NCBI GenBank assembly: GCA_016187125.1
Contig: JACPKF010000001.1
Span: forward strand, 238,178 to 302,177
Origin: Candidatus Saccharimonadota bacterium
GTDB taxonomy: Bacteria; Patescibacteriota; Saccharimonadia; Saccharimonadales; UBA10212
Length of the DNA stretch: 64,000 bases
Direction of reading: 5' to 3'
In this document: piece by piece, positions 9 through 52,623 of the stretch
Layout of the letters: every line of letters starts with the position of its first letter
How positions within the stretch are numbered: position 1 is the stretch's first letter
Notes under the pieces: model-generated
Databases searched by the model: none
Told to the model about the DNA's origin: nothing
The model's input: only the letters and a program-made list of their open reading frames with translations
Program-made: the position numbers and the translations under genes

Positions 9-85
9 TGGTGGAGACGATGGGAGTCAAACCCACGACCTCATGCCTGCCAGGCATGCGCTCTAATCAACTGAGCTACGTCCCC
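9..85 (-). tRNA. tRNA-Ala (anticodon GGC), CCA encoded
   Basis: The reverse complement folds as a cloverleaf. Acceptor GGGGACG/CGUCUCC, D stem GCUC/GAGC, anticodon stem CAUGC/GCAUG with loop CUGGCAG, T stem GUGGG/CCCAU, then ACCA. The D loop is AGUUGAUUA and the T loop is UUUGACU, both non-canonical. Confidence 0.9.
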
Positions 86-3285: not shown

Positions 3286-4398
3286 TCATGCCTTGAATAC
3301 CTCTGCCGGATCAACGTCGGCAATTCGTCTAATTGGCATGTACGAAGCCAAGGTGGCCATAGCCAGCGTCAGGCCAAAAACCCAAAGCATGTCTAAAGCA
3401 TTAATTTGCGAAACAAATTGCGGTACAAAGTCACCAACAGTCGCCTGCAAACCAAAGGCAATTAAACTACCAGTTGCAAAACCTGTTAAACCGGCTATCA
3501 TAGCTTGCTTGATAACAACACCATAAAGTTGGCGATGACTCATGCCGATCGCCTTCAGTACGCCGTATTCCCGAATTTTTTCGACCACTGACGTGAAGAT
3601 GGTTAAGCCAATGACTGCCGTACCGACGACCGTGCCGATAATCAGCAGCACCAAAATTACCGGCAGAAAACTTTCGCGGATGAGCTTGGTGTTGTTAGAC
3701 ACAAATTGCTTTTTTGTAACTGCGTCAACACCGGGAAGATTGTTTTTGATATTGCTAATTGCCTGGTTTGGATCAGTGTTGTTTTTGAGCTGTACGGTAA
3801 AGAAATTAGTTGAGTTTGGCAAGCGTAAAATTTGTTCGGCATCCTCTTTAGCAGCAAAAGCGAACGAAAAAGTCACTACATCACCCCCTTCGGACAGTCC
3901 GACGACTTTGAATTTTTGCCCGGCAATATCAAGTGAATCATTTATTTTTATGTTTTTGTTCTTGGCTGTTATTCTATCGACGATAATTTCGCTGGCTTGC
4001 GGTACGTTTTGGCCGGTCGCGATGGCTGCGGGTAGGCCAGTTTGACGCTCGGCGTCATAGGCCACGATATATAGACCGACATCTTGTTGATTAGCTGTAT
4101 GGAAGGCTACGCGGCGACCGCTAAAGGGCTTTACACTGGCTATACCATCCAGGTCTGCAATTTTGGATTCATAATCTAACGGTAGAACTGACGGCGTATG
4201 GAACATATCTTCTGTTCCATCTTGCATCACCCATAGGTCGGCTGGTACCGACCGGATGTATTGACCCATTTTATCGTTCCAGCCTCTGTATAGACCGGTT
4301 AGCACCATAATCAGGACGATACTAAAAGCCACGCCGCCAACGCTAATTAACAGTCTGGTCTTTTCTTGAAAAAGATTACGGACAGCAATTAGGAACAT
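3286..4398 (-). CDS. ABC transporter permease, FtsX/MacB family
   Basis: 370-aa ORF. N-terminal TM helix, large periplasmic-type domain, then a C-terminal three-TM FtsX-like block. Adjacent to the ABC ATPase. Confidence 0.8.
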   Translation of the reverse strand: MFLIAVRNLFQEKTRLLISVGGVAFSIVLIMVLTGLYRGWNDKMGQYIRSVPADLWVMQDGTEDMFHTPSVLPLDYESKIADLDGIASVKPFSGRRVAFHTANQQDVGLYIVAYDAERQTGLPAAIATGQNVPQASEIIVDRITAKNKNIKINDSLDIAGQKFKVVGLSEGGDVVTFSFAFAAKEDAEQILRLPNSTNFFTVQLKNNTDPNQAISNIKNNLPGVDAVTKKQFVSNNTKLIRESFLPVILVLLIIGTVVGTAVIGLTIFTSVVEKIREYGVLKAIGMSHRQLYGVVIKQAMIAGLTGFATGSLIAFGLQATVGDFVPQFVSQINALDMLWVFGLTLAMATLASYMPIRRIADVDPAEVFKA

Positions 4399-19330: not shown

Positions 19331-19418
19331 GGGCGAGTGCTGTAACCAGGTAGCCAGGCTGGCTTGAGGTGCCAGTGTCCGTAAGGACGTGGAGGTTCGA
19401 TTCCTCTCTCGCCCACCA
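19331..19418 (+). tRNA. tRNA-Leu (anticodon GAG), type II, CCA encoded
   Basis: Acceptor GGGCGAG/CUCGCCC, anticodon stem CUGGC/GCCAG with loop UUGAGGU, long variable arm, T loop UUCGAUU. TGCTATACT lies upstream. Confidence 0.85.
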
Positions 19419-22036: not shown

Positions 22037-22113
22037 GCGGGTGTAGCTCAGTTGTTTAGAGCGCTTCCTTGCCAAGGAAGAGGCCAGGGGTTAGAGTCCC
22101 CTCACCCGCACCA
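22037..22113 (+). tRNA. tRNA-Gly (anticodon GCC), CCA encoded
   Basis: Acceptor GCGGGUG/CACCCGC, anticodon stem CUUCC/GGAAG with loop UUGCCAA. The D loop AGUUGUUUA and T loop UUAGAGU are non-canonical. Confidence 0.85.
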
Positions 22114-22141: not shown

Positions 22142-22175
22142 AATCCTCAAGCCAAAAAGCTGAGGATTCTTTATT
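22142..22175. terminator. putative bidirectional terminator hairpin
   Basis: AATCCTCA/TGAGGATT 8-bp stem, flanked by an A-run upstream and a T-rich run downstream. Lies between tRNA-Gly (+) and a small minus-strand ORF. Confidence 0.5.
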
Positions 22176-22192
22176 CTTTCTCGAGAAAGAGA

Positions 22193-22664: not shown

Positions 22665-22738
22665 TGGAGGCGCGAACGAGATTCGCACTCGTGTACAGGG
22701 TTTTGCAGACCCTTGCCTAACTCCTCGGCCATCGCGCC
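22665..22738 (-). tRNA. tRNA-Cys (anticodon GCA), CCA encoded
   Basis: GGCGCGAUGGCCGAGGAGUUAGGCAAGGGUCUGCAAAACCCUGUACACGAGUGCGAAUCUCGUUCGCGCCUCCA. Lies 3 nt upstream of tRNA-Leu(TAA). The T loop UGCGAAU has G at position 55. Confidence 0.8.
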
Positions 22739-22804: not shown

Positions 22805-23296
22805 ATGCCAAAACGTTCGTGGACGGACCAACAACTTGAGATTGCTGTAAGAGACTCAAAAAGCTATAGGTCGGTGCTCATTAAACTTGGCTTAATCCCA
22901 GCCGGAGGTAATTATGATCAAATCAAGCGGCGTATCAAAGAGCTAGCGATTCCGGCGGAGCACTTCACCGGCAAGGGCTGGAATGTTGGCGGAATGTTTA
23001 TTCCAAAGCCGGCGAAACCAATTGAACTGCTTCTGATTAAAGACAGTGATGTACAAAGCTACAAATTAAAAGTCAGGCTTTTTGCAAAAGGGTTAAAGAA
23101 GCCTAAATGCGAATTGTGTGGCTGGGCGGTCGTTGCTCCGGACGGTAGAGTGCCACTGGAACTAGATCATATCAACGGCAAACGGCGCGATAATCGTCTA
23201 GAAAATCTGCGGATTCTTTGTCCTAACTGCCACAGTCTTCAACCCACGCACCGTGGTAAAAATAAGAAGGTTAAACTAGCTCAAATATTAGCTTAG
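22805..23296 (+). CDS. HNH endonuclease
   Basis: CELCGW...LELDHINGKRRDNRLENLRILCPNCH (HNH with flanking Cys pairs). 163 aa, next to the tRNA pair. Confidence 0.8.
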   Translation: MPKRSWTDQQLEIAVRDSKSYRSVLIKLGLIPAGGNYDQIKRRIKELAIPAEHFTGKGWNVGGMFIPKPAKPIELLLIKDSDVQSYKLKVRLFAKGLKKPKCELCGWAVVAPDGRVPLELDHINGKRRDNRLENLRILCPNCHSLQPTHRGKNKKVKLAQILA

Positions 23297-39734: not shown

Positions 39735-42599
39735 TTATTTTTTCTTGCCACTGGCCGGTTTAGCGTTGGAACCACCACTGATGGGTTTCGTAAAGGCGGC
39801 TGATTTACTGGGAGTCGGGTTAAAAGCGTTGGGGGCGAATTGGACTATGGAAGGCTTAGGCGGAGCAACCGAAACTACTACCGGCGGTTTGGGTGTTGGT
39901 TTGGGAGCGGCAGCTACAACCGGTGGTTTAGGTGTTGGTTTGGGGGCAGCAGCCGCGACTGGTGGTTTAGGTTTGGGCGGAGGGACGGAGGTTGTTGCAA
40001 AGGGTTTGGGTGTTGGTTTGGGAGCGGCAGCTACAACCGGTGGTTTAGGTGTTGGCTTAGGAGCAGCAGTTGCTACTACTGGTAGTTTCTTGGGCGGCGC
40101 CACTGGAGTAGGACTACTCATAACTACTTTTTTAGGCGGAGCGACCGAAGCTACTACTGACTTAGGTTTGGGCGGTGCTCCGGGGACAGGACTACTCATG
40201 ATGGGCTTAGACGGGAAGATTGTTGCCCCTGGCGTAGGCACTCCGGGTACAGGACTACTCATAGACACTAAGGCCGGTTTGGGCGGTGCTCCGGGGACAG
40301 GACTACTCATGATGGGCTTAGTAGGTATCGGAGATACTGCCGGCGAACTGGCAAGACCTCTCTCAGGACTGTTAGAGAAGCCAAAGGATGATGTTGCTAC
40401 AGCTGCTGGGACTACTGTCTTAGGGGGGGTAGCTAGCGGTGCGGTCTGGGCAGCATTGATAGCTGCCGCTTCAAGGTCATCGAAAGAAACCTTGGGCTGA
40501 GGAGGGATAGTCGGAGCGGCTACCGGAGCTGCTGATGCCGGAGGGGTAGCTAGCGGTGCGGTCTGGGCAGCATTGATAGCTGCCGCTTCAAGGTCATCAT
40601 ACGAAGCCTTATTTGCCTTAGCTGTGGTGGTCGGGGGAGTTAGAGGTACAGAATTGTCCTTAGCGTCCATAGCAGCATGATGATCAAAGACTTTTTGGGC
40701 TGAAGATTCAAAAGCTGATCCCAGAGGTTTGACATTATTATTTAGTGAGGCATTACCTACATCATCTGGCAGAGGGGTAGCTGATCCTATCGGCGCAGTT
40801 TGATCAGGATTGCTGGCTGCCATTATAGCGTCATCTAAGGAGGGTCTAGGCAGAGGAGAAGCTGCCGGGGTTACTGACGCCGGAGGGATAGCTGATGTTG
40901 ATCCTGTTGGTATAGTCGGTGCATCATCTCCCAATGCAGCCGCGTGGTGCGCTTGTACTACTGGATTATTACTAATGGCAACATTTATCCTGGTTGCCGG
41001 AGTCGAGGCAGGCAGAGCCGTTGCCTTAGGTTCAGGCACTCCCGGAACAGAACTGGGTATTGCCGGAGCCTTTCGGATCGTGTAAGGTGTATGGCCTTCA
41101 ACTTGCTCAATTTTAGCGCCCGATGCCGTGGTAGTTATAGTTACACCAGGGCTAGGATGTTCAGTCTTAACAGGCTTAGCGCCACCAGTATAGGCCGGTG
41201 GATAGACAGGAGGTGCTGCTCCTGGAACAGGACTAGGCATGGTAGGTTGAGACGGTGTTACTACCGGAACAGAACTGCCCATAATGGGCTGGGGCGACAC
41301 TCCCGGAACAGGACTACTCATAGCTGGGGCTTGACTTGTCGTAGGAAAAGATAAAGATACGGGAACGCTACCAAAGTCCGTAGTAACAGGCGCTTTGCTA
41401 CTGGGAGGTGGGAAGTGGGCTGTGTCATTAGAGGCGATCGACGACTTAGAAGAAGATGCTACCAACGGATTGACAAGACCTCTTTCAGAAGTGCTGGGAG
41501 AACCAAAAGATGTTGCCGGCAGATTCACGGTGCCTCTGTCAAAAAGGCTATGACTATCAAGAGATGGAAAGTGGGCTGTGTCATTTGCGGCAACTAGGCT
41601 TGCCGAGGCTGTTGGGGTTTGTAAGGCTGATGGATCGCCATCGCCAGAGTCACCCCTGCCTTGACCATCTTGAACAACAAGATGCTCGCTCAATATACCG
41701 CTGCCGATAGCTTTATTAACTTGCGCTTGGTTTAGATGGGAAGTGTCCCACACTTCACCGTTTTTAATAAATGATGCGTAGCCGTCAGTAAAGATACGCT
41801 CTACTACTCCGGTTTTGGGGTCTTCAATGGTTTTAAGAATATTGTCCGTAGTGTGAGGTACCGGATGAGATTTAATCTGAAAATACTGACTAGCTGCTGC
41901 TTGGTTCCGGGGAGGCATCGCAGCCGCGGAAGCGGCTGCCGGCGCGACTGCTTTAGCTATATCTGGAGAAGTTTCGCCACCGACAACTCCAAGTGGTCTC
42001 GGCGTAACTTGATCGCCTCTTAGCCCGCCGCCAGCTGGCGGCTCTGTGCCTGGAGGTGTTTCGCCACTGCCGCCACCGAACGGGTTGGTACGAACAGGAA
42101 TGCCCCCGCCAGGTGCTGCTGGAGGGGTGGTCACATCTCTTGGCTTAACATCCGTTTGGGTGCCAGGTCCGTAAGGGGTCGGAGCACCCGTATCTAAGAC
42201 TTTGCCACGATCACCATATTTAGTCCATGAACCATCAGGTTTATAAACTGTTACTGAACCATCGGGATTTCTAGTAATTTTTTCGCCGCCGGGAGTTGTA
42301 TGTTCTTTCAACGGTGATGTATTAGCCGCTGCGGCTAGCGCATTGTTTGGTACACTTGCTGTTGGAGCCTCAGAACTATCCTGCGGATCAGTAGAATAAG
42401 AAGTAACTAAGCCGTTCTTGCTGTAAACGTAGCCTGTCTTTCCGTCTGGGGAAACGGTTGTGTATTGACCACCATCGTTTAGATTGAAGTAGCCGCCTTT
42501 TTTTACCCAGGTGTCGCCAGTCCAGCTCCACCCATCACCGGGGGGTTTCGATGGAATCTTATTACCCTCTTTCTTACGACCTAGGCCGAAAAGTGCCAT
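39735..42599 (-). CDS. 954-aa proline/alanine/serine-rich modular repeat protein, unknown function
   Basis: A long ORF with a good AAGGA-type RBS. The N-terminus has beta-hairpin-like repeats (GWSWTGDTWVKKGGYF, SPDGKTGYVYSKNG, NPDGSVTVYKPDGSW). The rest is PxP-rich with exact internal DNA repeats. Confidence 0.7.
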   Translation of the reverse strand: MALFGLGRKKEGNKIPSKPPGDGWSWTGDTWVKKGGYFNLNDGGQYTTVSPDGKTGYVYSKNGLVTSYSTDPQDSSEAPTASVPNNALAAAANTSPLKEHTTPGGEKITRNPDGSVTVYKPDGSWTKYGDRGKVLDTGAPTPYGPGTQTDVKPRDVTTPPAAPGGGIPVRTNPFGGGSGETPPGTEPPAGGGLRGDQVTPRPLGVVGGETSPDIAKAVAPAAASAAAMPPRNQAAASQYFQIKSHPVPHTTDNILKTIEDPKTGVVERIFTDGYASFIKNGEVWDTSHLNQAQVNKAIGSGILSEHLVVQDGQGRGDSGDGDPSALQTPTASASLVAANDTAHFPSLDSHSLFDRGTVNLPATSFGSPSTSERGLVNPLVASSSKSSIASNDTAHFPPPSSKAPVTTDFGSVPVSLSFPTTSQAPAMSSPVPGVSPQPIMGSSVPVVTPSQPTMPSPVPGAAPPVYPPAYTGGAKPVKTEHPSPGVTITTTASGAKIEQVEGHTPYTIRKAPAIPSSVPGVPEPKATALPASTPATRINVAISNNPVVQAHHAAALGDDAPTIPTGSTSAIPPASVTPAASPLPRPSLDDAIMAASNPDQTAPIGSATPLPDDVGNASLNNNVKPLGSAFESSAQKVFDHHAAMDAKDNSVPLTPPTTTAKANKASYDDLEAAAINAAQTAPLATPPASAAPVAAPTIPPQPKVSFDDLEAAAINAAQTAPLATPPKTVVPAAVATSSFGFSNSPERGLASSPAVSPIPTKPIMSSPVPGAPPKPALVSMSSPVPGVPTPGATIFPSKPIMSSPVPGAPPKPKSVVASVAPPKKVVMSSPTPVAPPKKLPVVATAAPKPTPKPPVVAAAPKPTPKPFATTSVPPPKPKPPVAAAAPKPTPKPPVVAAAPKPTPKPPVVVSVAPPKPSIVQFAPNAFNPTPSKSAAFTKPISGGSNAKPASGKKK

Positions 42600-47179: not shown

Positions 47180-48886
47180 TTAGAGTTTTTTATCGGGTGA
47201 TGAGTTATCGGTCTTAAGCTCTTGCAAGACGACATGGATTTTACCGGGTTTGTTGGGAGCTTTACTTACCCAGAAAGGACTCATTTTGACTTCCACATTT
47301 TTCACACCAGGCCAGACACTAATTAGACTTTTAATATCACCGCTTTTTTGGCCGCCTACCATCTTTTTGACTGCTTCAATATCAATTACTGGAATAGCAG
47401 TGGTCTCAGCGGTTACTGCTAGCGTTGTGTTCGTGGGCGAAGCTTGACTTTGAACATTCACCTGAATATTTTTAAGTACATCTTCGCCACTGAGTTTTTG
47501 TTTTTTAAGATCAATTTGTTTGTTGAGCTCGCCTGTAACGGCTTTTTTTAAATCATCTTTTTGAAGCGTCAAAACGCTGTGAGTAATTTTAATAGTCACG
47601 GTTGCCGTGGTTGCCGATCGCCCAACAGCCGGCGATGATGAAACTTGAGAATCGCCCAGTTTATAAGTGGACGCAACGACATAAAAGCCGGCGGCAATTT
47701 GATTTTGAAAGTCCTTAGCAAATTTATCGGTTTCGGCCGATGTCAGCTTTTGTTTAGCGTTATCAAGGTCTGTTTGGCCAAGGACTGTAACAATATTATC
47801 GGTGCCCCCGCTAGCCGAGCCAGTAACACTAACTCCTGGATAACCAGCCACGCTAAAACTAGCTGAACTAAGATTATATTTAGTCCCTCCGCTGCTAGCA
47901 CCAATCGCCGTTGAACTTGTACTCTGAAAAGTACACTTGCCAGCAGCTACAACTGGAGCAAAGGCTGTTTTTGCCTGAGTTATATAGGTTAAGCCATTAG
48001 ATGACAGTCCGGTGCCCGCGGGGATGTCTGGCGGCACAGTACCGCTACAAGCTCCGGCCGACATATTTACCGAGCCAGAGGCTTTATTGCCATTGTTTTG
48101 CTGGCCAGTAGCCTGAACTTGCTGGGTTGAAGTCTGGTCAGCGGTTTTTAGGACCGACGGTATAATATTTTTTGTTTCGTCAATTTTTTTGGCTTGGCCA
48201 TCGGTAGTCAGATTAAAACTAGCTGCAAGTTTTGTGCTTTCGGTGCTTATAGTGATAGTGGCTTTGGGCAGTACTTTGGCAGCTAAAATTATAAAGATAA
48301 TCAGCGCTATAGTGCCAGCTAGACTCAGCCCGAGTATTAAACGGAATTTATCAAAATTGGGAACTTTAAGTTTTTTATTATTAGGTAGGGCTGGTCTTTC
48401 AGTTGACGATTGGTCGGCGGCTGCTTTTTCACTATCCTCAAGAGTTATGGCCTCGGGTTCTTCTAGTTCGCCGGCGGCAGCTAGCTCGCCAATAGAACGA
48501 TGGTAATCGAGCGTAGCCTTATCTTCGTCCGGTTCATCATTAAGCTTATCGTCGGACATAGCTGCCGTCTCGTCCCGGACAACTGGAGAGGGTGGAATAT
48601 AGGCTTTAGTTTCTAAGCTTTTGGCCACTTGAAGGCCAGCGGCGCCAGCCAGCGGCAGCAGTGCCGGCTCACTAGTGACTAGAACCGGCTTTTTGCTGGC
48701 TGCTTTGGCACTACGCTTTAAAAGACGCATGTTAACTATACTTTGCAGAGCCGATGCGCGTTTTGGCAGAACCAGGGCCACGGTTTGGGCTTTGGCCGAT
48801 TCGATTTTACTAATAATTGCCGTTATGTCGTCTTCAACGTCAACGTAAATTACATCCTTACCCGGCTCGTTGGATTGGGCAGCCAT
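47180..48886 (-). CDS. single-pass membrane protein, unknown function
   Basis: 568 aa. Cytoplasmic N-domain (VIYVDVEDDITAIISKIE...), acidic linker, TM helix, and a large S/T/G/A-rich external domain. Confidence 0.55.
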   Translation of the reverse strand: MAAQSNEPGKDVIYVDVEDDITAIISKIESAKAQTVALVLPKRASALQSIVNMRLLKRSAKAASKKPVLVTSEPALLPLAGAAGLQVAKSLETKAYIPPSPVVRDETAAMSDDKLNDEPDEDKATLDYHRSIGELAAAGELEEPEAITLEDSEKAAADQSSTERPALPNNKKLKVPNFDKFRLILGLSLAGTIALIIFIILAAKVLPKATITISTESTKLAASFNLTTDGQAKKIDETKNIIPSVLKTADQTSTQQVQATGQQNNGNKASGSVNMSAGACSGTVPPDIPAGTGLSSNGLTYITQAKTAFAPVVAAGKCTFQSTSSTAIGASSGGTKYNLSSASFSVAGYPGVSVTGSASGGTDNIVTVLGQTDLDNAKQKLTSAETDKFAKDFQNQIAAGFYVVASTYKLGDSQVSSSPAVGRSATTATVTIKITHSVLTLQKDDLKKAVTGELNKQIDLKKQKLSGEDVLKNIQVNVQSQASPTNTTLAVTAETTAIPVIDIEAVKKMVGGQKSGDIKSLISVWPGVKNVEVKMSPFWVSKAPNKPGKIHVVLQELKTDNSSPDKKL

Positions 48887-50697: not shown

Positions 50698-52623
50698 TTA
50701 TTCAAGAACGGCTTTAATTCTGCGTACTCCTGCACTGGATGCTTCCTCTTTGGTGATTTTGAACTTTCTTTGTGGTGAGCCTGCCTGCGGTGAGCCAGTC
50801 GAATCCGTCGAACCATTGCCGCCCTGACCGATTTGGCCAGTATGCTGCACATGCGGGCCGCCGCAGATTTCGCGGCTGAAGGGCTTTTTGGGATCGCCAA
50901 TGGTGTAAACCTTGACTTTGTTGCCATATTTATCGCCAAAAGCGCCAGAAGCGGTCTTTAAAGCTTCCGGCGTTTTTTCTTCTTTCCAAGTCACCGGCAA
51001 GTCTTCGGCGATTTTTTGATTGACGATATCTTCTACTTGCTTAATTTGCTCGGCCGTCACCTTTTGGGAATGGCTAAAGTCAAAGCGCGTACGCTCGGCA
51101 GTTATATTGCTACCCCGCTGCACAACATGGTCGCCCAATACTTGCTTCAGAGCCCGGTACATCAGATGAGTCGCTGTATGGTATTTAACTACCTGCTGCG
51201 AATGATCGGCCAAGCCGCCCTTGAACATGCCAACACTAGCCGTTTGGCTGCGATGGCGCTGCTTAGCCATTAGATCTTTAAACTGCCCTTGCCACTCCTT
51301 ACTAACGGTAACTTTTTGCAGATAGGCTTCTTCTAAACTTAGCTCCACCGGAAAGCCATAAGTGTCGTAAAGTTTGAAGACATCAGCTCCGGTGAGTTGC
51401 TTTTTCTGTTCGGCCAGCTTGAAAAATTGGCGAACGCCAGCCCGGAGGGTTTGGCGAAAGATTTTTTCTTCTCGCATAAACAGTTCGACTACTTCATTTT
51501 TTTGTTGATTAACTTCTGGAAAATTCGGAGCGTAAAGGCTGGTGATTGTTGGCACTACCTGCTGGCATAAATCTTGTTCTATCCCGAGTTCAAAAGCATA
51601 ACGAATGGCTCGGCGCAGTAGCCGGCGCAAGACATAACCCTGGGCTTTATTACTTGGCGCAACCCCGTCAACCGCCAAAAAAGTGGCAGCTCGCAGATGG
51701 TCAGCGATTACCCGCATGCTGGTTTGGTGTTGCTGATAATCCTTACCGCTTAAGCCCTCCAGGCCGCTGATTATTGGTTTTATAAGGCTGATTTTGAACA
51801 TATCGGGATCATCATTGACAGCTGCAGCTATGCGTTCCAGCCCGCCGCCAAAATCAACGTTGGGCGCAGGCAATGGTTCGAAGCCTTTGGATGTTTTCTT
51901 GTAAGCCATAAACACGCTGTTACCTATTTCACCAAAACGGCCGCAATCACAGTTTGGGTGACAATGCTTGCCAAATTTTTGGTCATGTGGGGTCTCAAAA
52001 TCGTAAAAAACCTCGCTGTCCGGACCGCCCGGTTCGCCCTCACGCATATTGACTGGCGGGCCTTCGCGGCTCCACCAGTTTTTAGAAGCATCGTAATAAA
52101 AGATGCGGCCGCTTCGCATACCTTTGGCATAGCCATTAGCGTTGGAGCCGATTTCTACTTCTTTAGCTTCTAGGCCGCTAGCAGCGAATAATTTCTTCCA
52201 GATTTCAGCCGACTCGGTATCTTTGGGCACGCCAGTTTCTTTATCACCAATAAAACAAGTCACATAAAGTTTTTTCGGATTAAGGCTTACAGCGTCCGTT
52301 AAAAATTCCCAGAACCACGGCAGTTGCTCGGATTTGTAATAATCGCCTAGGCTCCAGTTGCCCAGCATTTCAAAAAAGGTGGTGTGACGATTATCGCCGA
52401 CTTCGTCCATGTCTTCGGCGCGGAAGCAGGTTTGACTATCCACCAGCCGCTTGCCGTCAGGGTGTTTTTCGCCCAGCAAATATGGCACCAGCGGCTGCAT
52501 ACCGCTACCGGTAAATAAAGTTGTCGGGTCGTCCTGTGGCACCAAACTAGCCCGCGGCAATATTTTATGGCCCTTCGCCTCAAAAAACTCCAGATATTTT
52601 TTACGTATTTCCTGCGCTGTCAT
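50698..52623 (-). CDS. alaS: alanine--tRNA ligase (short form) with a repeat-derived insertion near the C-terminus
   Basis: Class II core (FFEMLGNWS, GGGLERI), editing domain HTATHLM...CGGPHV. The segment QGGNGSTDSTGSPQAGSPQR lies between TGQIG and KFKI and is encoded by GC-rich repeat DNA (about 50768-50830). Confidence 0.9.
   Translation of the reverse strand: MTAQEIRKKYLEFFEAKGHKILPRASLVPQDDPTTLFTGSGMQPLVPYLLGEKHPDGKRLVDSQTCFRAEDMDEVGDNRHTTFFEMLGNWSLGDYYKSEQLPWFWEFLTDAVSLNPKKLYVTCFIGDKETGVPKDTESAEIWKKLFAASGLEAKEVEIGSNANGYAKGMRSGRIFYYDASKNWWSREGPPVNMREGEPGGPDSEVFYDFETPHDQKFGKHCHPNCDCGRFGEIGNSVFMAYKKTSKGFEPLPAPNVDFGGGLERIAAAVNDDPDMFKISLIKPIISGLEGLSGKDYQQHQTSMRVIADHLRAATFLAVDGVAPSNKAQGYVLRRLLRRAIRYAFELGIEQDLCQQVVPTITSLYAPNFPEVNQQKNEVVELFMREEKIFRQTLRAGVRQFFKLAEQKKQLTGADVFKLYDTYGFPVELSLEEAYLQKVTVSKEWQGQFKDLMAKQRHRSQTASVGMFKGGLADHSQQVVKYHTATHLMYRALKQVLGDHVVQRGSNITAERTRFDFSHSQKVTAEQIKQVEDIVNQKIAEDLPVTWKEEKTPEALKTASGAFGDKYGNKVKVYTIGDPKKPFSREICGGPHVQHTGQIGQGGNGSTDSTGSPQAGSPQRKFKITKEEASSAGVRRIKAVLE

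Follow-up and report, generated by a model that had tools for sequence, protein, structure and literature searches.

Compensated replacement of elbow contacts in the glycine, alanine, and cysteine tRNAs of Saccharibacteria

Introduction

Can transfer RNAs (tRNAs) in which supposedly invariant elbow bases are replaced still be ordinary molecules of translation? This question is raised by a stretch of 64,000 nucleotides (nt) from a Candidatus Saccharimonadota bacterium (contig JACPKF010000001.1), hereafter the window, in which the genes for tRNA-Gly(GCC), tRNA-Ala(GGC), and tRNA-Cys(GCA) depart from the canonical bacterial elongator elbow, made up of G18•Ψ55 (Ψ, pseudouridine), G19:C56, and U54•A58. 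The original prediction held that G19:C56 had given way to another Watson-Crick pair in the first two tRNAs, that the third carried G at position 55, and that these changes were lineage-specific features of functional tRNAs and not signs of decay. The analysis described here indicates, with a probability of about 0.7, that the three genes encode normal, translation-active tRNAs whose elbow is kept by compensatory alternative contacts, the contact and not the base being selected.

Reviews term the elbow positions “constant” or “universally conserved.” The 19:56 pair is also the surface on which RNase P, the L1 stalk, uL5, T-box leaders, and several proteins stack (PMC4810234; PMC3664808).

Elbow Bases of the Three tRNAs

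Nine tRNA genes were called by ARAGORN in the window. The Gly, Ala, and Cys genes all form the elongator cloverleaf of the Rfam tRNA model (RF00005) with its four stems paired, and all score above its gathering threshold of 29 bits. None of them has the complete set of elbow bases conserved in that model (G18, G19, U54, U55, C56, and A58): tRNA-Gly has U19 and A56, tRNA-Ala has A19 and U56, and tRNA-Cys has A18 and G55. The partner is changed in step each time.

The tRNA-Gly(GCC) gene, at 22037..22113 on the + strand, has A73, an encoded CCA, and U19:A56. It scores 72.6 bits, the highest value among the window tRNAs, and its stems are fully paired. Its D loop is AGUUGUUUA and its T loop UUAGAGU. 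U19 stands at 22055, the usual site of G19, as shown by direct reading and the cmscan alignment, and A56, complementary to it, was read directly at 22093, the usual site of C56. The tRNA-Ala(GGC) gene, at 9..85 on the − strand (ARAGORN; Rfam, 65.1 bits), carries G3:U70, A73, an encoded CCA, and A19:U56, with the D loop AGUUGAUUA and the T loop UUUGACU; direct reading and the Rfam alignment place A19 at 67 (T on the + strand) and U56 at 29 (A on the + strand). A register giving G19:C56 was sought for both genes and none is possible, because past G15 the sole G of either D loop is G18 and the T loop of tRNA-Gly has no C. Direct reading, ARAGORN, and the Rfam model agree on both substituted pairs, as originally predicted.

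The tRNA-Cys(GCA) gene, at 22665..22738 on the − strand (ARAGORN; Rfam, 55.8 bits), has U73 and an encoded CCA and retains G19:C56; its D loop is AGGAGUU and its T loop UGCGAAU. G55 lies at 22686 (C on the + strand), the site of the otherwise universal U/Ψ55, both by direct reading and in the alignment. The original prediction had named this base correctly but had overlooked A18, the partner of position 55, and so described one half of a covarying A18/G55 combination. A18, at 22722 (T on the + strand), is placed in the G18 column by cmscan and by a gap-free alignment of the tRNA-Cys D loops GAGUGGUUA and GAGNAGUUA, and it is the predicted intercalator between positions 57 and 58. In the remaining six tRNAs of the window, the D loop contains GG and the T loop UUC, in line with the earlier statement that they are canonical.

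Covariation at 19:56

Relatives were sought in genomes, one per species, by the shared D arm with any base other than G at position 19 (TAGCTCAGTTGHTTAGAGC), which yielded at least 119 loci. By a count of record titles, 80 of these are labelled Candidatus Saccharibacteria, Saccharimonadales, or Nanosyncoccus, and the same tRNAs are found in about 10 others that lack a classification or are binned oddly; taxon labels are the depositors' own, and the samples from the scans are not exhaustive. A Saccharimonadales metagenome-assembled genome (MAG; locus L085) has a tRNA-Gly identical to that of the window, and the loci nearest to the window, among the matches listed, show about 75–78% identity to it over conserved genes, none being close overall. 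On these grounds the window is a segment of a Saccharibacteria (Patescibacteria) chromosome.

Among the 113 ARAGORN-confirmed non-G19 tRNAs of the genome loci with the D loop AGUUGHUUA, the 19:56 pair is A:U in 50 and U:A in 62, so that 112/113 are complementary at position 56; the sole mismatch belongs to a tRNA-Met of Bacteroidia. Two complementary pairs in the window alone would arise by chance with a probability of about 1/16, and the comparative data lift the complementarity far beyond chance. The lineage specificity that had been proposed is likewise borne out by this large-scale covariation in related genomes and metagenomes.

Since the genome scan left out G19 by design, position 19 was left free in a metagenome scan in which the D arm and the anticodon arm of tRNA-Gly(GCC) were fixed (at least 120 matches). 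The 120 matches listed comprise 119 with U19, one with A19, and none with G19; A56 is present in 113/113 complete U19 genes and U56 in the single A19 gene. A73 and an encoded CCA occur in all the matches listed, and in the 37 distinct sequences the changes in the acceptor and T stems are compensated. Viral contigs, scanned with the entire D loop free, served as a control. Here, tRNA-Gly(GCC) genes with the same backbone and of the U73 type have canonical AGUUGGUA/UUCGA loops, and those of the A73 type have U19:A56 in 7/7. The control thus retrieves canonical genes, which links the variant state to tRNA of the Saccharibacteria type.

Across the relatives' tRNA families, double changes are found at 14-15 pairs and 97.6–99.9% of cells are paired. 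In tRNA-Ala, where 36 distinct Saccharibacteria sequences have 99.9% of cells paired over 24 pairs, the 19:56 pair is A:U in 25, G:C in 10, and U:A in one, with no mismatch. Two of these genes (L118 and L141) differ at positions 19, 20, and 56 only, and a gene tree built without the elbow columns gives at least four switches at 19:56. [quoted passage not shown]

The same swaps occur sporadically in reduced genomes, namely, in tRNA-Val of Enterousia, elongator tRNA-Met of Spiroplasma and phytoplasma, tRNA-Met of Woesearchaeota, and tRNA-Gly of Peribacteria, a distribution that fits compensatory valley-crossing in small populations. Compensated A19:U56 or U19:A56 pairs in single isoacceptors were seen in Spiroplasma (L018, 3013-3089), phytoplasma (L103, 550-626), and the DPANN archaeal Woesearchaeota (L010), and tRNA-Val(UAC) with a compensated 19:56 pair in L003 and 10 other Alphaproteobacteria/Enterousia loci. 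A contig labelled Romboutsia (L080, 1-8000) holds 19 tRNA genes in 8 kb, nearly all without an encoded CCA, in an array that looks foreign or phage-derived; its elbows that are not G:C are those of tRNA-Met (A19:U56), tRNA-Thr(UGU) (A19:U56), and tRNA-Arg(UCU) (C19:G56).

Covariation at 18:55 in tRNA-Cys

The tRNA-Cys genes of the loci form an unbiased sample, because the loci were retrieved through Gly or Ala. G18/U55 is found in 38 of the 63 genes and A18/G55 in 25, and mixed states are absent; on 41 distinct sequences the association gives a Fisher p value of 4e-12, uncorrected for phylogeny. A18/G55 occurs on at least three different tRNA-Cys backbones, the genes of L009 and L194 are identical apart from the elbow, and the gene tree with the elbow masked gives at least five switches at 18:55. 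The family is 97.6% paired, with double changes at 15 pairs.

Canonical and A18/G55 genes share the same syntenic slot, in a Phe-Gly-Cys-Leu(UAA) cluster, and two Gly(GCC) or two Cys genes at one locus were found in none of about 240 loci (loci, not whole genomes). The shared cluster and the lack of a two-copy locus therefore identify the variant tRNA-Cys as the orthologue of the canonical gene and not as an extra gene.

In tRNA T loops, U is at position 2 and G18 intercalates; in riboswitches, the T loops are UGNRA (88.7% in flavin mononucleotide (FMN) riboswitches) and adenosine is almost always the base that intercalates between positions 4 and 5 (bioRxiv 10.1101/2022.12.26.521914). The UGNRA core is present in the window tRNA-Cys (UGCGA-AU), and UGCRA in 17/25 variant genes. 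A18 sits in the G18 column and covaries perfectly with G55 (25/25 variants), and its intercalation is predicted from the sequence. The variant tRNA-Cys appears to have shifted from the tRNA to the riboswitch flavour of T loop, sharing G at position 2 and the A intercalator with the UGNRA loops of FMN and cobalamin riboswitches (also found in ribosomal RNA and RNase P). It differs from them in its context, a tRNA elbow topped by G19:C56, and the equivalence is one suggested by sequence and covariation.

Other T-loop variants were also seen. Eight of the 25 A18/G55 genes (L022, L048, L060, L153, L178, L180, L207, and L237) have the T loop AGCRUUA, in which the reverse-Hoogsteen pair U54•A58 is swapped to A54…U58. 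A similar swap (GAUCGUN) is present in tRNA-Gly(GCC) of viral contigs (L259, L260, L294, L309, L311, L359, and L360). Isostericity of the swapped pair with the original is not obvious. C55 in place of U55 (T loop UCCGA…), with G18 retained, was observed in a Saccharibacteria tRNA-Gly(CCC) (L082, 5949-6023), in tRNA-Gly(GCC) of several phage contigs (L301, L320, L323, and L348), and in a tRNA-Thr (L035, 1-73).

Identity Elements and Codon Usage

The elements by which these tRNAs are recognized are intact apart from the discriminator of tRNA-Gly. In tRNA-Gly(GCC), G1:C72, C2:G71, G3:C70, the GCC anticodon, G51:C63, and G53:C61 are each present in 45/45 distinct sequences. G51:C63 contributes strongly to EF-Tu binding. 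The discriminator is A73, of the archaeal/eukaryotic type, in 43/45 sequences, the bacterial norm being U73. A73 was seen in Saccharibacteria tRNA-Gly of both the GCC and the CCC type (the window gene at 22037-22113 and L082, 5949-6023), and the two U73 sequences, from Peribacteria and from an unclassified Patescibacteria MAG, both have A19:U56. The identity elements of tRNA-Ala are likewise found, with G3:U70 in 36/36 sequences and A73 in the window gene, as are those of tRNA-Cys, with the GCA anticodon and U73 (last column T in 32/32). The anticodon loops of the Gly, Ala, and Cys genes are 7 nt long.

Codon usage was counted in 25 genes of the window: 79% of Gly codons are GGY and 76% of Ala codons are GCY, so the variant Gly and Ala tRNAs read the majority codons. 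Together with the identity elements and the covariation of the stems, this usage indicates that the Gly(GCC), Ala(GGC), and Cys(GCA) genes encode ordinary translational tRNAs. Covariation, identity elements, synteny, and codon usage together support the earlier view that the compensated 19:56 pair marks functional tRNAs and not decay.

Synthetases, TruB, and Other Elbow Readers

The window encodes a short alanyl-tRNA synthetase (AlaRS) of 641 amino acids (aa) at 50698..52623 on the − strand (NCBIfam PRK01584, 621.6 bits), which has no C-Ala domain: its Pfam domains are tRNA-synt_2c and tRNA_SAD only, which cover the catalytic and the SAD/editing regions, and the protein stops about 40 aa beyond SAD. 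In C. elegans, C-Ala binds the elbow of tRNA-Ala with G18G19 as the main determinant, and a compensated G18G19C56→AAU mutant is not recharged (PMC10485164). In the α2β2 form of glycyl-tRNA synthetase (GlyRS), the β subunit grips the elbow of tRNA-Gly and stacks on G19:C56 and U20 (PMC10164559). In two Saccharibacteria loci (L099 and L124), GlyRS is of the dimeric α2 form (PRK04173, 560.7 bits), and a GlyQ motif was not found in the loci examined. Here, the cognate synthetases may place no constraint on which bases form the elbow.

A gene for TruB (246 aa; TIGR00431, 212 bits) lies on a metagenome contig (L216) that carries a U19:A56 tRNA-Gly (3482-3558), and a global loss of TruB was rejected on this ground. 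This short TruB appears to be without the C-terminal PUA domain. The minimal TruB substrate is 53-GUUYRANYC-61 (PMC7912444). The variant tRNA-Cys would have to be without Ψ55, because G55 is not isomerisable; TruB probably acts poorly on tRNA-Gly, in which A56 departs from the consensus, and U56 of tRNA-Ala is predicted to fit it.

The relevance of the changes to RNase P, the CCA-adding enzyme, and the L1 stalk, which had been suggested at the outset, found no support. With the canonical elbow retained in most tRNAs of this genome, the global elbow readers must accept both forms, and an effect is predicted only for T-loop enzymes that read bases, such as TruB.

Proposed Mechanism

On the reading preferred here, the elbow would be rebuilt with other bases and the same contacts. 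In tRNA-Gly and tRNA-Ala, the change from G19:C56 to U19:A56 or A19:U56 would keep the outermost Watson-Crick tertiary pair and its flat stacking platform, and any Watson-Crick pair at 19:56 would retain a flat face for RNase P, the ribosome, and other elbow readers. In tRNA-Cys, a T loop of the UUCRA type, into which G18 intercalates as is usual in tRNA, would have become one of the UGNRA type, with A18 as the intercalator. The new elbows would be equivalent to the old ones in three dimensions and their bases neutral. Their origin would be a compensatory double substitution in the fast-evolving Saccharibacteria lineage, and their maintenance would follow from selection for the contact rather than for base identity. 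Synthetases without elbow-gripping modules, that is, AlaRS without C-Ala and, in relatives, GlyRS of the α2 and not the α2β2 form, probably gave permission. The expected effects would be a slightly weaker elbow pair, a tRNA-Cys without Ψ55, and a tRNA-Gly that is a poor substrate of TruB.

Several points weigh against this reading. G19:C56 is kept in many bacteria with α2 GlyRS, so that the synthetases can have had a permissive role at most. With the D arm fixed in the scans, and in those for Gly the anticodon arm too, Saccharibacteria tRNA-Gly(GCC) genes with other D loops would have escaped them. Gene trees from about 60 nt are noisy and the switch counts are approximate. A canonical duplicate elsewhere in the genome is unlikely, the copy count covering the loci mentioned above. 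Finally, U19:A56 is almost fixed in tRNA-Gly whereas tRNA-Ala toggles, and selection on base identity in tRNA-Gly could be the reason.

Alternative Explanations

This last point leads to an alternative in which the base identity at 19:56, or at 18:55 in tRNA-Cys, is itself an adaptive tag, a determinant or antideterminant for a lineage-specific reader of the elbow. Such a tag might exempt the tRNA from T-loop modification by TruB or decide, in episymbiosis, whether a tRNA-using enzyme, a nuclease, or a host factor accepts it. We regard this as unlikely, although there are arguments for it: U19:A56 is essentially fixed in tRNA-Gly(GCC) across the class, whereas tRNA-Ala toggles; TruB is kept on a Saccharibacteria-type contig, and its consensus excludes A56 and G55 (PMC7912444); and particular isoacceptors only are concerned, Phe, Leu, Val, Ile, and other neighbours being canonical. 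Against it, G:C, A:U, and U:A are interchangeable in tRNA-Ala of close relatives, and tRNA-Cys takes either state in one syntenic slot, a toggling to be expected if compensation is neutral as to identity. The window revealed no candidate reader, the same swaps turn up sporadically in unrelated reduced genomes, and the fixation in tRNA-Gly is partly forced by the search pattern.

In its broadest form, the elbow bases would be information, and the Saccharibacteria, perhaps the candidate phyla radiation (CPR) widely, would have recoded 19:56 and 18:55 of their major Gly, Ala, and Cys tRNAs, which we consider doubtful. If it were true, these tRNAs would be exempted from, or directed to, readers of the elbow and T loop (TruB and Ψ55, a lineage-specific enzyme, or a host or phage nuclease). 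A18•G55 would also be an undescribed natural alternative to G18•Ψ55, in a bacterial cytosolic tRNA that works without Ψ55.

Far less probable is a specialised, non-proteinogenic role of the kind that tRNA-Gly has in Staphylococcus, where it serves peptidoglycan cross-bridges. Gly and Ala are indeed the usual Fem/MurM substrates and typical cross-bridge donors, and the S. aureus non-proteinogenic tRNA-Gly species are without G18-G19 and U55. However, the Gly and Ala tRNAs described here keep G18 and U55, and their 19:56 pair is compensated and not lost. The anticodon is GCC and not UCC, and the anticodon loop is normal; G51:C63 is invariant, and the staphylococcal traits, that is, weak EF-Tu determinants of the T stem (loss of G51:C63 and of 49:65), a short anticodon loop, and uncompensated loss, were not seen. 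Of the Gly and Ala codons, 76-79% are read by the variants, no second Gly(GCC) or Cys gene accompanies them in any of the roughly 240 loci, and no Fem-family gene is present in the window. A cell-wall role was rejected, the EF-Tu determinants and codon usage not fitting it.

That the genes are decaying pseudogenes or artefacts of alignment or assembly, as deviations at positions usually termed invariant might suggest, is effectively refuted by scores of 55.8-72.6 bits, by stems that are all paired, by the failure of any loop alignment to restore G19:C56, and by the recurrence of these states, along with compensatory changes in the stems, in more than 230 independent contigs, the low scores, broken stems, and relaxed selection of pseudogenes being absent.

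Comparison with Known Systems

Compared with the canonical bacterial elongator elbow, the Saccharibacteria tRNAs share the cloverleaf, the 7-nt T loop, U54•A58, R57, G53:C61, an intercalating purine at 18, a Watson-Crick 19:56 pair, and, but for the discriminator of tRNA-Gly, the identity elements. They differ in base identity, at 19:56 in Gly and Ala and at 18:55 in Cys. The three non-proteinogenic (NP) tRNA-Gly(UCC) species of S. aureus, NP1-3, are likewise bacterial cytosolic tRNA-Gly with U19 and a noncanonical elbow. These, however, have lost G18, G19, and U55 without compensation, are extra copies with a UCC anticodon and a shortened anticodon loop, and are devoid of EF-Tu determinants, whereas the Saccharibacteria tRNA-Gly is compensated, has the GCC anticodon, keeps G51:C63, and is apparently the only copy (about 240 loci).

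The pair found here in tRNA-Ala has a counterpart among laboratory constructs. An engineered pre-tRNA-Gly of T. thermophilus (G19A/C56U) has the same A19:U56 pair and is processed normally by PRORP3, a protein-only RNase P (PMC4797305). By comparison, the C. elegans tRNA-Ala AAU construct is uncharged since C-Ala reads G18G19, and the natural A19:U56 described here coexists with an AlaRS that has no C-Ala. Animal mitochondrial tRNAs also belong to small-population, fast-evolving systems and depart from the “invariant” elbow bases (PMC2777451). They often lose the interaction or whole arms, whereas here the interaction is strictly preserved by covariation, and some isoacceptors only are affected.

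Surroundings of the tRNA Genes in the Window

The window proteins are those of ordinary bacterial housekeeping, including UvrABC, LigA, AlaRS, MnmA, Obg, ATP synthase, and L25. No Fem/MurM-type transferase, TruB, TrmA, or RNase P is encoded in the window. An open reading frame (ORF) for an HNH endonuclease (163 aa) borders the tRNA cluster at 22805-23296 on the + strand, 67 nt from the 5′ end of tRNA-Cys. Two ORFs on the − strand, at 39735-42599 (954 aa) and 47180-48886 (568 aa), have no Pfam match; the former also has no NCBIfam match and lies in the most G+C-rich and GC-skewed stretch (40-44 kb, GC 0.507, skew +0.08).

A hairpin read by eye at 22142..22179 on the + strand (AAUCCUCA…UGAGGAUU, with a U-rich tail), 29 nt past tRNA-Gly, is a likely, if slightly evidenced, intrinsic terminator of the tRNA-Gly transcription unit. 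A scan for promoters and terminators around tRNA-Gly gave nothing convincing, its loop limit being 8 nt and the loop of this hairpin longer. A sub-threshold Rfam scan of the neighbourhood of tRNA-Gly and tRNA-Cys gave no other RNAs. The tRNA-Leu(GAG) gene at 19331-19418 on the + strand, called by ARAGORN, was missing from the whole-window Rfam gathering run; a local run scored it at 44.2 bits with one D-stem mismatch, the whole-window miss being a filter effect.

Implications

The literature search found no description of these elbow states in Saccharibacteria, nor of any A18/G55 tRNA. The covariation of a Watson-Crick tertiary pair is a known principle, and what is new is the lineage-wide variant, which may well already show in tRNA databases and have gone unreported.

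G18, G19, Ψ55, and C56 count in textbooks and reviews as fixed features of all cytosolic tRNAs, and it is the “G19:C56 platform” that many enzymes and RNAs are said to read. In a whole bacterial class, another pair has taken the place of G19:C56 in the tRNA for about 79% of glycine codons, and tRNA-Ala and tRNA-Cys switch repeatedly. In CPR genomes, such genes will be scored too low by tRNA annotation and detection models whose training loops were canonical. G18•Ψ55 would have a workable alternative in A18•G55, which would imply a tRNA without Ψ55 where a relative encodes TruB. The loss of elbow-binding synthetase modules, such as C-Ala and the GlyRS β subunit, may decide whether base identity is kept or released. 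In this regard, the Saccharibacteria tRNAs amount to a natural mutagenesis experiment, according to which it is the contact and not the bases that would matter to the universal machinery of ribosome, RNase P, and EF-Tu.

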